Part shown: piece by piece, positions 420 through 38,350 of the stretch | Layout of the letters: the number at the start of each line of letters is the position of its first letter | How positions within the stretch are numbered: position 1 is the stretch's first letter | NCBI GenBank assembly: GCA_020832985.1 | Contig: JAJHRE010000004.1 | Location: 1-44,532 of the forward strand | DNA length: 44,532 nt | Direction of reading: 5' to 3' | From: Desulfurococcaceae archaeon | GTDB lineage: Archaea > Thermoproteota > Thermoprotei_A > Sulfolobales > NBVN01 | The notes under the pieces: generated by a model | Told to the model about the DNA's origin: nothing | Databases searched by the model: none | Seen by the model: only the letters and a program-made list of their open reading frames with translations | Position numbers and translations under genes: made by a program

Positions 420-1310
420 CTAAGTTAGGTTTAGACTTAATATTGCTTCAGTCAAAAGTGGTGTTATATCTATAGGTTCAACACCTACTGGTAACGGGAC
501 TGTATTTAGGGAGTATACTCTTGAGACCCCACTTGAGTATATCTTACTTAGAGCCTCACCAACGAACAACCCATGACTACATACCACATATATGTTTGAA
601 GCTCCCTTCTCCCTCAAATAGGATGCTATATTAGCTACCGTACCACCAGTACTTATTATATCATCAACTATGATTACATCCCTACCTGATACATCAACAT
701 CTACAACCTCATGTCTTATACTACCAGTCACCCTATCCCTAAACTTCCTAAATACTACGTATGTAGAGTTTAGAAGTAGTTTAGATAGTTTAACTGCTTT
801 ATCCAGAGCTCCTTGATCAGGTGCTACTACTACAGGATTTTTAACGACTCCGTATAACTTACTTACGTAAAGTTTTGTAGGGTCTAAATTCATAGAGTTA
901 CCGTTGAAGAACTTTAAAGATTCTTCCTTATGGATATCAATAGTTATTAAGTAATCAACACCGATAAAACTTAAAGTCTTAAGTAATGTCTTAATACTAA
1001 TAGCTTCACCGTCTAAGAACCTCTTATCCTGCCTAGCGTAGGCTAAGTATGGGATGATGGTGATAACCCTCCTACACCCTAAATCCTTAGCTGTATCTAC
1101 AGCTAGTAGTAATTCAAAGAATTTCTTATCTTGGTTAGGGTATAATGATTGAATTATTATTAGGTCTTCACCACGTACATCCTTAACGAACCTTATATAT
1201 GATTCACCATCAGGGAATAACTTCATCTCTATAGGTAGTAACTCCTTATTAACAACCCTACTCAAACCAACCTCCAACCCGTTAGAACCTGATAAACCTG
1301 TTATTAACAA
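420..1310 (-). CDS. prs: Ribose-phosphate pyrophosphokinase
   Basis: FPDGE, PYLAYARQDKRF, VVAPDQGA and VIIVDDIISTGGT (PRPP-binding) motifs. Confidence 0.97.
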   Translation of the reverse strand: MLITGLSGSNGLEVGLSRVVNKELLPIEMKLFPDGESYIRFVKDVRGEDLIIIQSLYPNQDKKFFELLLAVDTAKDLGCRRVITIIPYLAYARQDKRFLDGEAISIKTLLKTLSFIGVDYLITIDIHKEESLKFFNGNSMNLDPTKLYVSKLYGVVKNPVVVAPDQGALDKAVKLSKLLLNSTYVVFRKFRDRVTGSIRHEVVDVDVSGRDVIIVDDIISTGGTVANIASYLREKGASNIYVVCSHGLFVGEALSKIYSSGVSRVYSLNTVPLPVGVEPIDITPLLTEAILSLNLT

Positions 1311-17836: not shown

Positions 17837-18082
17837 ATGGTGGTGGGTATGGTGTTTTATAGGGTTAGGAGGATTAATGGTCGTTATTATCTTGTTAAGG
17901 AGTGGTATGACCCTACGTTAGGTAAGAAATTAAGTAGGTCTTTAGGGCCTTGTGATAGGATTGAGGAGTTGTTGAGGTGGTGCGGGGGGTGGGATTCGAA
18001 CCCACGCAGGCCTACGCCATCGGGGCCTAAGCCCGACCCCTTTGACCTAGCTCGGGCACCCCCGCACTGTTGTTCTAATTAG
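17837..18082 (+). pseudogene. N-terminal fragment (intN) of an SSV-type tyrosine integrase reading into tRNA-Leu
   Basis: RINGRYYLVKEWYD...RSLGP resembles SSV1 D-335 intN; the C-terminal WCGGWDSNPRRP... is the antisense translation of the tRNA. Confidence 0.8.
17978..18065 (-). tRNA. tRNA-Leu (anticodon TAG), CCA encoded, no intron
   Basis: GCGGGGGTGCCCGAGCTAGGTCAAAGGGG-TCGGG-CTTAGGC-CCCGA-long variable arm-GTGGGTTCGAATCCCAC-CCCCCGCA-CCA. Confidence 0.97.
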
Positions 18083-35012: not shown

Positions 35013-35311
35013 TCTTCCTCTTCTCCTTCCTCTTCAACCTCTTCAGCTTCTTCGTACTTCTCTACTTTGAATTTAAACTTCTTAAGATATTTATGACTTC
35101 TTAAATGATATACTAAATCTCTAGATGTGAAGAATGTGAGGAGGTTTTCCCTCACTTTAGAAGTTTGCCTACCCTCAGGGCAAAACTCATCAATGTTCTC
35201 ACATATAGGGCATAAGATTAACTTAGTGACCTCATCTACACAAGTAATTACCTCAATACCATCAACTATTAACTTCTTCCTAACCCATCTAGGCTCCCAG
35301 AATAAAGACAA
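35009..35311 (-). CDS. Zinc-finger-like protein with acidic tail
   Basis: CPIC...FFTSRDLVYHLRSH (C2H2-like with insertion); poly-Glu C-terminus. Confidence 0.65.
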   Translation of the reverse strand: MSLFWEPRWVRKKLIVDGIEVITCVDEVTKLILCPICENIDEFCPEGRQTSKVRENLLTFFTSRDLVYHLRSHKYLKKFKFKVEKYEEAEEVEEEGEEEE

Positions 35312-35354
35312 TAGATAATCACCATATAGACCTAACTAAAATTTAAACATCCTA

Positions 35355-35564
35355 CTATAATACCTGACCGTACCTACCGTCCTTCTCTAACTGATTAATT
35401 TTATACATAATTGCATTCCTAATAAACTCACTCCTACTCCTAAATTTATAATGCTTTATTAGATAATCAATCTTCGCTAATGTATTACAGTCAAGCTTTA
35501 TTGATAAAGTCCTTGAAGGACCTTGAATCTTATCAAATAATAAGCTCTCATTCATAACATACAC
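35355..35564 (-). CDS. Ribbon-helix-helix (CopG/NikR-like) transcription regulator
   Basis: TLSIKLDCNTLAKID...FRSRSEFIRNAI. Confidence 0.85.
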   Translation of the reverse strand: MYVMNESLLFDKIQGPSRTLSIKLDCNTLAKIDYLIKHYKFRSRSEFIRNAIMYKINQLEKDGRYGQVL

Positions 35565-35806
35565 CTACGTTAAAGCAGTGACAATAAAGTTAATAACTCT
35601 TACTCTCTAGTAATTCCTAAATGATTAACCATTTATATCTACAATTAGTAGGGATAAGTGAATTACTTGAGGAGTTAATTAAGCATTAAGACTCATCAAT
35701 TATTAAAGACAGTACCTAAGAAGTACTATACACAATCACTAAGTTTGATAGACCTCGTCTTAATAAGTAGTACCTTTTTTATGTATTTTTATTTGTAGGG
35801 TTTTAA

Positions 35807-36229
35807 GTGGGTACTATGGAGGAAGCTATTACCGCTATCGTTAGGTATTTAGTCATTAAGAAGTTGATTAATGATGTAGTAGCATTAGTAGCTATTAAGG
35901 AGTATTTAATTGATGGTGAGTCTCCAAGCGTTATAGCGTTTAAGTATAGGACTAGTAAGTTCAAGGTTCGAGGACATATCCAGAGAGTTATAGATAAGGC
36001 AGGGAATTATAGAGTAGCTACTAAGGTTGTTGAGGTAGTATATCCCCATATAGCGTCTATAGAGCCTGTGATGTTAAGGAGTGGTGGTAGGGTGTTATGT
36101 ATGTTATGTAATACTTATCTAAGAGCTTCTGATGCAGAGTCGCATCTTAGGAAGAAGCATAAGGAATTCATCAATAATATAATCCGTAACATTACCAACA
36201 TAGTAATCTCCAGAGTTAGAAACCCTTAA
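35807..36229 (+). CDS. Putative DNA-binding protein with HTH-like N-terminus and C2H2 zinc finger
   Basis: GESPSVIAFKYRTSKFKVRG HTH-like; CMLC...HLRKKH. Confidence 0.7.
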   Translation: MGTMEEAITAIVRYLVIKKLINDVVALVAIKEYLIDGESPSVIAFKYRTSKFKVRGHIQRVIDKAGNYRVATKVVEVVYPHIASIEPVMLRSGGRVLCMLCNTYLRASDAESHLRKKHKEFINNIIRNITNIVISRVRNP

Positions 36230-36238
36230 GGCTGTTAC

Positions 36239-36321
36239 CTTTCAGTTCTATTTTAGATATTCTACACCTTACATCTTCTATTAGAGATTTAGGTATTTAT
36301 TCAGTTCTATCATTTTAATTT
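36239..36321 (-). CRISPR. Orphan mini-CRISPR-like unit: one intact 24-nt repeat, 35-nt spacer, one degenerate repeat
   Basis: Repeat 36239-36262 reads GAATATCTAAAATAGAACTGAAAG on the minus strand (crenarchaeal ...ATAGAA(T/C)TGAAAG type); the partial copy at 36298-36321 shares TTCAGTTCTAT. Confidence 0.6.
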
Positions 36322-36504
36322 TTCTTAATCTGATTTTTAAATTTTTGTTGTCATGCATTTCATTAATGTGATTTACTTGGTGGTTTTCTTGAAGAGCCAC
36401 ACTGTTAATAAGAGTAGCTTTACGTCCTCGTTAGATGTATTAAAACCTGCCGTGATAGTTACATAGCTTATTTTTAGCCTACAACTAGGGTACATACCCA
36501 AATG

Positions 36505-36512
36505 TTTATAAA
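36505..36512 (+). promoter_or_regulatory. TATA box for the downstream structured RNA
   Basis: TTTATAAA about 25 nt upstream of the GC-rich structured segment. Confidence 0.55.
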
Positions 36513-36535
36513 CACGCTAGGCAGCAATAACTACA

Positions 36536-36742
36536 TGGTTGGTGCTGAGTCCCAAGACCTGTGGCTGAACCGCAGTGCGTGGCTTAGCACTGTGCCGTGA
36601 TGAACTCGAGGGTGGTCTTGAAAACTCTGAAACACCATAAACAACCACTCTTGGGTGAACGGCTTATGTAGCATGGGTGGAGCTAACGAATCCGTAGTGA
36701 GGCTCAACTAACAGAAACACGAGTACCGTTATCGGGGAATGC
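36536..36742 (+). ncRNA. Unassigned ~200-nt structured RNA with C/D-type K-turn motifs
   Basis: GC-enriched non-coding island; GTGCTGA, CTGA, GTGATGA, CTGA boxes; several complementary helices; ACA at 36711. Confidence 0.6.
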
Positions 36743-36796
36743 TTAATTTATAAGCTTAATACTTGATTCTATATTATCGTTATAGGGGATTAAGTA

Positions 36797-38350
36797 ATAA
36801 GTGGTGCTGGACTCTTTAAAGAGTTAAACGTATTCGTACCTAAGGGTAATCCGTCAGTTAAGATAGCCTTAGTGTACCCAAGTACTTATCAAGCATCGAT
36901 AACTAACTTATTCACCCATATAGCTTACTACTACTTAAACTCATATGATGATGTATTAGTTGATCGGTTTACTATGGATAACCCCATCAGCGGTTCTTTA
37001 ACATCCTTAAACTTAAGGAAATTCGATATAGTCTTAATGAGTTTAAGTTATGAATTCGACTATATCAACGCTATTAAAATCCTCTTACTAAATAATATAC
37101 CGGTAGTTAACGACCGTGGTAGGAGACCTATAATCATAGCTGGTGGTCCAGCAGTTTCTGCAAACCCCTTACCACTCTCTAAATTCTTCGACGGTATAGT
37201 TATAGGTGAGGGTGAGGAAGTTCTTAAGTTATTAATGGATTCTACAGGATTACTACATAGTAAGGACTTATTCCTAGAGAATTTAGCTAGTAAGGGTCTC
37301 TACATACCGTTACTTCATGATGGTAGTAAGATTAAGAAGTCTTATGTAGTTGATCTAGATAGTTCCTACTACCCAGAATATCAGATACAGTCGTTAATTA
37401 TTGAGCCAGTATTCGGCAGAGGGTACATCATGGAGATTTCTAGAGGATGTAAGCACTTATGTTCATTCTGTATGGAGGCATTTATATCATACCCGTATAG
37501 GGTGAGGAGTTATGAAAAGATAATGGAGAGTGTGGGTAAGGGTTTAGAAGTTAATAAGGTTGATAGAGTTGTATTCTACTCACTTTCATTCTTTGACCAT
37601 CACTCAGCAGATAGGATATTAGAAACACTCTTAGAAAGAGGTATAAGGTTTAGCATACCTTCAGTAAGAGCAGATACTCTAAATGAGTATAGGGTTGACT
37701 TGATAAGACGTGGAGGTCAGAAAACACTTACGTTAGCTCCGGAAACACATAGTGATAAGTTAAGATGTGTTATTAGGAAGTATATTAGTGATGAGTTAGT
37801 TTCTAGGTTAATAGATTACGGTATTAAGTTAGGTATGGAGGTTAAACTATATTATATGGTAGGTATACCATTCGAAGATGATGAGGATATAAACCAATTA
37901 GTTAAATTCCTTAGAGGCCTAATACCAATTCTAGATAAGAGTAGGTTTAGGAGGAGGGTTAGAGTAGTTATAAATCCATTAATACCTAAGGCGAACACAC
38001 CTATGCAGTTCTTCGGATTAATTAATAAGAAGGAGTATATGCATAGAGTTAGACTTATCAGGAAAGGACTTCCTGGCAGGTATTTCAGAGTTGAAGCATT
38101 AAGCCATAACTTAGCATATATGCAAGCAACTATGAGTTTAGGTGATGTGAAACTAGGTGATGTATTATTAAGATACGTTAGTGAAGCATATGTTAATGAG
38201 GAATTACATCTCTCAAGCTATAAATACCTACTTAAGTCCTTAGGTATTGATACTGATTACGTATTTAAACCTAGGAACCCATCAGAAATACTTCCTTGGG
38301 AATTCATAGATTTAGGTTTAAATATAAGGGGTTTTAACATCATTAAGTAG
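36797..38350 (+). CDS. B12-binding-domain radical SAM protein; probable ATA start at 36797 (track start 36872)
   Basis: KIALVYPSTY, IAGGPAVSANP, IGEGEE, EISRGCKHLCSFC, TLAPET, YYMVGIP, LPWEFI. Confidence 0.9.
   Translation: MSGAGLFKELNVFVPKGNPSVKIALVYPSTYQASITNLFTHIAYYYLNSYDDVLVDRFTMDNPISGSLTSLNLRKFDIVLMSLSYEFDYINAIKILLLNNIPVVNDRGRRPIIIAGGPAVSANPLPLSKFFDGIVIGEGEEVLKLLMDSTGLLHSKDLFLENLASKGLYIPLLHDGSKIKKSYVVDLDSSYYPEYQIQSLIIEPVFGRGYIMEISRGCKHLCSFCMEAFISYPYRVRSYEKIMESVGKGLEVNKVDRVVFYSLSFFDHHSADRILETLLERGIRFSIPSVRADTLNEYRVDLIRRGGQKTLTLAPETHSDKLRCVIRKYISDELVSRLIDYGIKLGMEVKLYYMVGIPFEDDEDINQLVKFLRGLIPILDKSRFRRRVRVVINPLIPKANTPMQFFGLINKKEYMHRVRLIRKGLPGRYFRVEALSHNLAYMQATMSLGDVKLGDVLLRYVSEAYVNEELHLSSYKYLLKSLGIDTDYVFKPRNPSEILPWEFIDLGLNIRGFNIIK

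Follow-up and report, generated by a model that had tools for sequence, protein, structure and literature searches.

The DNA analysed here, called the window throughout, is a stretch of 44,532 nucleotides (nt) from a Desulfurococcaceae archaeon (contig JAJHRE010000004.1 of assembly GCA_020832985.1). It carries a GC-rich, non-coding island that a preliminary description, made from the sequence alone, had taken for an independently promoted RNA of about 200 nt with a kink-turn (K-turn) and switch-like alternative pairings. The island is a real, structured RNA gene of ~130 bases with a K-turn, and represents a decayed copy, standing alone, of the RNA gene that belongs to a 1.3-1.5 kb element; this element is similar to IS200/IS605 or IS1341, is found in hyperthermophilic Thermoprotei, and encodes a TnpB-like protein with its other gene. 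The G+C content of 36534-36666 is 52.6%, as against 37.2% in the whole window and 31% in the 300 nt upstream, which bears out the GC enrichment first noticed. All motifs of the preliminary description are present: the TATA box TTTATAAA at 36505, GTGCTGA at 36542, CTGA at 36565, GTGATGA at 36597, CTGA at 36627, CAAGACC at 36553, GGTCTTG at 36614, CCCAAGA at 36551, TCTTGGG at 36649, GAGGGTGGT at 36608, ACCACTCTT at 36644 and ACA at 36711. The view of the island as a structured non-coding RNA with its own promoter holds as regards coding capacity, structure and the TATA box upstream; the use of that promoter is presumed from its position. Below, G000 denotes the window's own genome (an 82%-complete assembly) and G001 a genome of the same genus.

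The copy in the window and 6 others (7 in all) align from the TATA box through ...GGTGAACGG(C/T) and diverge after it. RNAalifold folds these seven into two hairpins with 35 pairs, 13 of which show compensatory double changes (positions in Table 1). The structure was then evaluated on two larger alignments, a 56-sequence family alignment (A3) and a set of 60 RNAs gathered independently via their adjoining TnpB-like genes (A5). On A5, 92.9% of the cells of the consensus structure are paired (shuffled mean 67.2%, slid controls 36-44%), both sides change in 34 of the 35 pairs and the covariation score is 0.644, as compared with at most 0.107 in slid controls, the pair counts being inflated by the fitting of A5 to the covariance model. 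Helices 1-3 of hairpin 1 (RNAalifold columns 8-58) are paired in 77-98% of cells, with double changes in 17 of 18 pairs. Strand-specific G.U pairs are frequent, one pair being U.G in 54 of the 55 rows that have letters there.

Hairpin 2 has the sequence of a K-turn, with a canonical (C) stem, a 3-nt bulge and tandem G.A/A.G pairs in the correct strand polarity. The C stem (36594-98/36659-63) is paired in 96.5% of the cells of A5 and shows double changes in 5 of 5 pairs. Among the 60 rows, the G and the A on the 5' side are kept in 56 and 57, the G and the A on the 3' side in 50 (A in 6) and 56, and the third bulge base is U in 42. This conserved GA/GA signature upholds the proposal of a C/D-type K-turn, and because such a K-turn appears to be present the RNA is a plausible ligand of L7Ae; G000 encodes L7Ae-family proteins. 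A second K-turn in hairpin 1 was considered and rejected, as inspection of the alignment by eye shows its GA to be lost from the window's subfamily. A guide of the bridge-RNA kind in the A-rich loop was rejected as well, since near-identical paralogues share near-identical loops and have unrelated 3' flanks.

In the window, the plus strand folds at -70.2 kcal/mol (z -2.03), a value equalled by 7 of 200 shuffles, and the minus strand (z -0.78) is unremarkable against its shuffles. The covariance models of Rfam 15 give no match at E<=10 within 36300-36950, and none at gathering thresholds there, so the Rfam check proposed earlier returns no family; homologues with compensatory changes, the other requirement, do exist (BLAST, covariance model and covariation check). 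Identity with RNase P RNA or signal recognition particle RNA is ruled out, both being located on other contigs of G000.

The finer features assigned to the island by the preliminary description have mostly not survived comparison. From the proposed C/D'/C'/D set, the GTGATGA box at 36597 does belong to the conserved K-turn, but it pairs with the GA at 36657-58 (in GGTGAACGG) and not with CTGA at 36627; the latter sits in the variable loop, CTGA at 36565 in a hairpin loop, and neither is conserved. What the family keeps is a GUGAUGA-like element with a GUGA partner instead of CUGA, and no C'/D' pair. The supposed guide segments fall inside conserved helices or in a neutrally drifting loop. Archaeal box C/D sRNAs are about 50-70 nt long; the family measures 113-170 nt, and the conserved RNA in the window ~130 nt rather than ~200. 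A C/D-H/ACA chimera fares no better: none of the boxes D', C' and D is conserved, the equally unconserved ACA lies in flanking sequence that no copy shares, the linker after hairpin 1 reads GUG and no conserved pocket was seen. The second hairpin said to end in this ACA (~36651-36713) borrows bases of the conserved K-turn stems and otherwise consists of unshared sequence. On A3, the pairing of the two 'guides' with each other (CAAGACC/GGTCTTG) reaches 45.4% of cells with a covariation of 0.060, the hairpin insert GCAGTGC/GCACTGT 42.6%, and the alternative CCCAAGA/TCTTGGG 60.8%, a figure matched by 490 of 500 shuffles. With alternative helices that show no covariation above controls, the conformational switch falls away; the pairing GAGGGTGGT/ACCACTCTT is retained as part of a 12-bp stem with compensatory changes, but not as an alternative state.

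The RNA is widespread. A blastn search of 41 related genomes found matches in 4, the window's genome included. G000 has a second copy on C40, 80% identical with the TATA box included, and a partial third copy on C15. The more sensitive covariance model (R1) gives matches in 26 of 52 genomes from the taxonomic family, representing 11 of 13 genera, with up to 14 copies per genome and lengths of 113-170 nt that cluster near 113, 134 and 165 nt. In an even sample of the class, R1 finds the RNA in 37 of 151 genomes, often in several copies. The searches together brought up more than 100 RNAs. The partial copy (G000:C15:19254-19295, minus strand; L010 ~1495-1546) amounts to the K-turn hairpin only and abuts an apparently truncated DNA methyltransferase open reading frame (ORF; an SPPY motif was recognised by eye); an intact TnpB-like element lies ~10 kb away on that contig. 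One metagenome-assembled genome labelled Archaeoglobaceae, outside Thermoprotei, has an intact TnpB-like gene with a divergent RNA of 36 bits (L160), by horizontal transfer or by an error of binning.

The RNA is physically linked to a gene of the TnpB family. When all ORFs around the RNA loci were clustered blindly, one recurrent neighbour emerged, a family of ~365 aa at 6 loci, whose ORF starts ~55 nt from the RNA 5' end on the opposite strand. Searching from the protein side gave 80 loci from named public genomes, 25 of them truncated and so untestable; among the 55 that include the N-terminus and at least 249 nt upstream, 51 have a divergent RNA on the opposite strand upstream of the gene, at a gap of 41-71 nt (median 48), the four without it being L131, L133, L141 and L182. 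The genomes concerned include Desulfurococcaceae, Ignisphaera, Aeropyrum, Acidilobaceae, Pyrodictiaceae, Vulcanisaeta and Caldivirga; Caldivirga sp. MU80 and Vulcanisaeta sp. JCM 14467 are among those that have intact elements. Within the 52 family genomes, 9 of 11 intact genes have the divergent upstream RNA, 3 of these matches being weak (14-23 bits), and one of the two without it has merely 155 nt of upstream sequence. Both RNA and protein occur in 18 of these genomes, the RNA only in 8, the protein only in 9 and neither in 17. At the place of a canonical omegaRNA (the final ~150 nt of the gene together with the element's far end), 32 loci show no conserved structure, with 2 pairs and 0 covarying.

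The spacer between the two genes is itself conserved. A TATAA core is invariant and in register in the 7 first-found copies, and most of 53 further loci have the consensus CTTATAAA centred ~26 nt before model position 1 and preceded by an A-rich stretch. Closer to the protein gene, at about -47 to -35, the 53 loci carry equivalents of the window's palindrome with G-rich, AT and C-rich parts (GGGGAATCCCC, GGGTATATACCC, GGCTATAGCC); GGGGAATCCCC and its variants adjoin the start codon, and their arms covary. A second, TATA-like box, placed at -11 to -4 relative to the RNA, recurs in many of these loci (36524-36531 in the window). Palindrome and second box together suggest overlapping divergent promoters, along with an operator or a hairpin in the 5' untranslated region (5'-UTR).

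The partner protein is predicted to have the TnpB/Cas12f fold, with a RuvC/RNase H-type nuclease core and N-terminal domains like WED and REC. Its AlphaFold (AF2) model has a predicted local distance difference test (pLDDT) score of 87.2, and a Foldseek search of the PDB with it places Cas12f first (E 8.7e-11; template modelling (TM) score 0.57-0.60), then Cas12k and ISDra2 TnpB (E 7.6e-8), with a Foldseek probability of 1.00 and TM 0.50-0.60 for these three groups. Sequence searches are fainter. NCBIfam gives sub-threshold matches to guided_TnpB (E 1.6e-8; 34 bits against a cut-off of 100), TIGR01766, Cas12f2 and the TnpB N-terminal domain; a local copy of Pfam without PF27229 gives no match at E<=0.01 and only Cas12f1-like_TNB at E 0.07-0.17; and a sequence profile search of the PDB gives 0 matches. 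A search of a large database returned 473 relatives, and among the matches listed PF27229 is the precomputed label of 120 of 120, some of which bear the name 'IS605 OrfB family transposase'. D210, E274 and H349 are invariant in 39 diverse members, so that the RuvC triad reads D-E-H in place of the usual D-E-D. The C4 zinc finger is absent, there being no cysteines between RuvC-II and RuvC-III.

The limits of the element could be read from paralogues within one genome, which are homologous over 1.3-1.5 kb, starting 21-40 nt beyond the stop codon and ending with the final base of the K-turn C stem. In 7 of 11 such pairs homology ends 3-4 nt inside the 3' end of the model, that is, at this final C-stem base; in the other 4 the alignment stops earlier, within the RNA, and none of the 11 extends past the RNA. 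Conservation thus drops sharply at the scaffold 3' end, as would be expected at a boundary between scaffold and guide, and because homology ends at that base the scaffold would read directly into flanking DNA. At their far end the elements have GGG(G)C[AT]G[AT][AT][AT]C, accompanied in one subgroup by a subterminal hairpin. Six miniature derivatives were found in which the far end and the last 26-39 codons are fused to the promoter and the whole RNA; the copy on G000:C40, read by eye, is likewise a miniature. In a pair of filled and empty sites, with the empty site in G001, a miniature copy is inserted without target duplication and host sequence resumes right after ...ACGGT. The insertion site of the C40 copy is too diverged for its target to be read. 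G000 has one gene for a Y1 TnpA transposase, which could act in trans.

One further insertion in G000 deserves description. On C22 an intact element (L061 1059-2565) interrupts an amidase-like gene (motifs GTDTAGS...PLAPSLD read by eye); relative to G001:C3:8397-8437, ~52 nt of the target are gone on the RNA side, and there is a resemblance between the target and the element's far end (GGTGTTTAC versus GGGCTGTTTTG). A solo RNA at L061 341-580 (plus strand) and the RNA of the intact element at 1059-1192 (minus strand), ~480 nt apart and both inserted relative to G001, are convergent, and therefore two outward 'guides' face each other across a fragment of a host gene.

The copy in the window lacks most of this organisation. 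The sequence G001:C46 matches window positions 35300-36233 and 36738-37998 as one contiguous stretch, joined at a GCT microhomology, and since the flanking genes are contiguous there, the segment 36234-36740 is an extra block of ~507 bp. Inside it, the promoter (palindrome 36488-99, TATA 36505-12) and the RNA are intact, and 36389-36664 is 81% identical to an intact element by blastn. Of the partner gene a ruined N-terminus is left, just where the divergent gene sits at other loci: tblastn with the L013 protein finds 36346-36474 at 60% identity over residues 2-45, and a profile match spans 36274-36474 with 7 stops. Homology of the RNA to other copies stops at 36662-36664. The sequence from there to the end of the block occurs nowhere else in G000, so that no second match offers itself as a trans target of the 3' tail, and it is also missing from the empty site of G001. 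Because the far end is missing the copy cannot move, and with the partner gene destroyed as well it is most likely an immobile relic that acts, if at all, only in trans. The block also holds an unrelated sequence, 'repeat X', with copies 76-86% identical at G000:C66:4760-4915 and G000:C71:12370-12527 and three in G001 (C24, C42, C27). Those in G001 run on into differing sequence, and repeat X may be another miniature element or a recurrent gene fragment.

Table 1. Features of the RNA gene and of the inserted block that contains it (positions in the window)
Feature	Position	Strand	Remarks
Inserted block, ~507 bp	36234..36740		Absent from the syntenic G001 site
Repeat X, 155 nt	36239..36393		Overlaps the decayed part of the gene remnant
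TnpB-like gene, N-terminal remnant (~residues 1-70)	36274..36477	-	Stop-ridden; divergent from the RNA gene
Palindrome GGGTACATACCC	36488..36499		Between TATA box and TnpB-like gene start; possible operator or 5'-UTR hairpin
TATA box TTTATAAA	36505..36512	+	Preceded by an A-rich stretch like a transcription factor B recognition element (BRE); probable RNA promoter; palindromic, with a possible second use by the divergent gene
Conserved RNA as modelled (R1, 134.5 bits)	36534..36666	+	Likely mature scaffold from ~36536-36541 to 36663
Hairpin 1	36541..36591	+	11-bp outer stem, internal loop, inner 4-6 bp stem, CUGAA cap
Hairpin 2 with K-turn	36594..36663	+	From RNAalifold and the A5 alignment
K-turn C stem	GCCGU 36594-98 with ACGGC 36659-63	+	Within hairpin 2
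K-turn 3-nt bulge GAU	36599-601	+	Within hairpin 2
K-turn tandem G.A pairs	GA 36602-03 with GA 36657-58	+	Within hairpin 2
Non-canonical (NC) stem, 12 bp	36604-15 with 36645-56	+	Within hairpin 2
A-rich loop	36616-44	+	Within hairpin 2; 15-35 nt across the family
Unique 3' flank, 77 nt	36664..36740	+	Position of an omegaRNA guide; holds the ACA and the 'second hairpin' proposed earlier

We regard it as probable that the RNA is an omegaRNA-type guide scaffold of the TnpB-like element, read across the element end from its own promoter. An intact element would then consist of two genes that diverge on either side of a 41-71 nt spacer, in which the TATA box is palindromic, one for a ~360-aa protein of presumed TnpB/Cas12f fold with RuvC D, E and H and no zinc finger, the other for an RNA of 113-170 nt made of the 5' hairpin and the hairpin with the K-turn. 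The element ends at the final C-stem base, so transcription would run into flanking DNA. The TnpB-like protein may bind the scaffold, archaeal L7Ae or the protein itself may fold or hold the K-turn, and the variable 3' tail would pair with DNA matching the flank, as in canonical TnpB systems.

Several observations weigh against this interpretation. The RNA is encoded on the opposite strand, 41-71 nt upstream of the start codon, not at the gene's 3' end in sense; this layout breaks the downstream-in-sense rule, and therefore homology with known omegaRNAs is unproven, Rfam offering no match either. The nuclease activity of a D-E-H protein is uncertain, because the third RuvC residue is His and not Asp. 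At 17 of 17 ends inspected GGG or GGA precedes C[AT]G[AT][AT][AT]C and may belong to the element, and these 17 ends show no conserved flanking motif (transposon-associated motif, TAM) separable from the element end. As to the window copy, the 77 nt past the scaffold lie inside the inserted block, so it did not arise by a simple canonical insertion; the 82%-complete assembly has no intact protein of its subfamily, the two intact homologues encoded in G000 being 32-33% identical to that subfamily. The pair counts of A5 are subject to the inflation mentioned above, and the covariation could partly reflect single-stranded DNA hairpins of transposition. From these comparisons we infer transcription and, beyond it, binding of the protein and of L7Ae, guiding and cleavage.

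A different role for a transcribed RNA would be regulation of the element itself, through promoter competition, titration of the protein or an antitoxin-like action. The shared 41-71 nt spacer, in which the TATA box is palindromic and another, conserved palindrome covers the protein gene's start, would suit such a regulator, as would the change of the catalytic Asp to His, by which the protein may have ceased to cut; exapted, non-cutting relatives of TnpB are described in the main text of PMC10691335. We nevertheless consider a pure regulator unlikely, as it leaves unexplained why scaffold end and element boundary coincide precisely across different subfamilies, why the whole RNA is retained in solo and miniature copies, and why the expected guide position holds no other conserved RNA.

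Quite improbable, in our view, is the proposal that the structure is a cis-acting transposon end, forming single-stranded DNA hairpins for a Y1 transposase, with a TATA box that serves the TnpB-like gene only and no stable functional RNA. The structure does lie exactly at the element end, G000 does have a Y1 TnpA, one subgroup has a separate subterminal hairpin at the far end, the miniatures retain both ends, and transcription of the RNA is something that we infer. However, a two-domain structure of 113-170 nt goes far beyond a terminal hairpin, the orientation and spacing of BRE and TATA box suit a start at the first helix, the frequent G.U pairs are strand-specific, a full K-turn consensus is a motif of RNA, and stable RNAs of AT-rich hyperthermophiles are typically enriched in G+C. 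The right end of a canonical element overlaps the omegaRNA, and a function of the DNA as a transposon end is therefore compatible with an RNA as well. Finally, an atypical L7Ae ribonucleoprotein (RNP) of the modification-guide type (a C/D-H/ACA chimera) or a riboswitch-like regulator with mutually exclusive helices, suggested by motifs that all exist in the window and by a GUGAUGA element and GA partner forming a C/D-type K-turn closed by a terminal stem, is highly improbable given the unconserved D', C', D (CUGA) and ACA boxes, 'guide' segments within conserved helices, alternative helices 43-61% paired and devoid of covariation, an ACA hairpin outside the family homology, and an RNA tied to a TnpB-like gene and not to modification machinery.

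The guide-scaffold interpretation sets the RNA beside several known systems. With the omegaRNAs (right-end RNAs, reRNAs) of TnpB in IS200/IS605 and IS607 elements, the OMEGA (obligate mobile element-guided activity) systems such as ISDra2, it shares a scaffold of 100-200 nt, tight linkage to a gene for a TnpB-fold protein, a scaffold 3' end that coincides with the transposon end and a tail drawn from flanking DNA, and solo and miniature copies scattered in genomes. It differs in lying on the other side of the gene and on the other strand, with its own BRE/TATA, and in showing no similarity in sequence or in Rfam, whereas the canonical omegaRNA overlaps the 3' end of tnpB, downstream in sense, in the accounts of PMC10691335 and PMC12817955. 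The ncRNAs sRkB, sRkC and sRk52 of Pyrococcus abyssi, related to OrfB/TnpB, are closer in some respects: as outlined in PMC3124441, they are archaeal, derived from TnpB/OrfB and encoded by GC-rich repeated loci, contain K-turns, bind L7Ae in vitro and have in part their own BRE/TATA, and the same paper cites like findings for transposase-linked, L7Ae-bound sRNAs of Sulfolobus solfataricus. These RNAs, in contrast, match the sense 3' end of orfB, by that outline, and belong to euryarchaeal or Sulfolobus families. The partner protein, with its invariant His (in DRH) and no cysteine cluster, resembles, by published description only, the TnpB clade RIIIr-4 (Altae-Tran et al. 2023), which has no C4 zinc finger and a RuvC-III Asp replaced by His (PMC10691335); the main text of that paper mentions no upstream RNA for the clade. 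Archaeal box C/D sRNAs share the terminal stem closing a GUGAUGA...GA K-turn, but they have conserved C'/D' boxes, a CUGA D box and free guides, all of which are wanting here, and are not linked to a transposon gene.

A search of the literature (TnpB with L7Ae, kink-turn, Thermoprotei, PF27229, RIIIr-4 and divergent upstream guide; of PMC10691335, the main text) found no description of the arrangement. TnpB/OrfB-linked K-turn RNAs, and omegaRNAs in general, are already known; new to the literature searched are a separate, divergent RNA gene at the other end of the element and a zinc-finger-less D-E-H partner. It is rather unlikely, though worth stating, that the two make up a distinct OMEGA system, in which a zinc-finger-less D-E-H relative of TnpB, a separately promoted, divergent guide RNA and host L7Ae, recruited through the K-turn, would form a three-part RNP and solo RNAs would supply guides in trans, either as a dispersed repertoire reminiscent of a CRISPR array or as tethers beside host genes (in the window, a radical-SAM promoter 80 nt downstream).

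Cas12 descends from TnpB and its omegaRNA, which are being sought for use as genome editors of very small size. The present RNA family occurs in about a quarter of the sampled Thermoprotei genomes, has no Rfam model and appears to break the rule of downstream overlap. If the RNA is a guide, guide and nuclease genes could be uncoupled without a CRISPR array having arisen first, L7Ae, an RNA chaperone of the host, would be tied to the RNP of a transposon, and the family would point to naturally thermostable RNA-guided proteins of ~360 aa with a defined scaffold of ~130 nt. The covariance model also lets annotators label a common GC-rich "orphan" RNA in AT-rich archaeal genomes.

Downstream of the inserted block lies a gene for a B12-binding radical-SAM protein (36802-38350), which probably starts at GTG 36802 and not at 36872; in G001 the stretch from 36802 onwards is conserved, and there is a TATA box at ~36747. 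A role of the RNA as leader or riboswitch of this gene was rejected, as other copies of the RNA have unrelated or convergent neighbours and the gene has its own TATA box, kept at the empty site. Elsewhere in the window, the sole Rfam match is a tRNA gene at 17981-18065 on the minus strand (56 bits).

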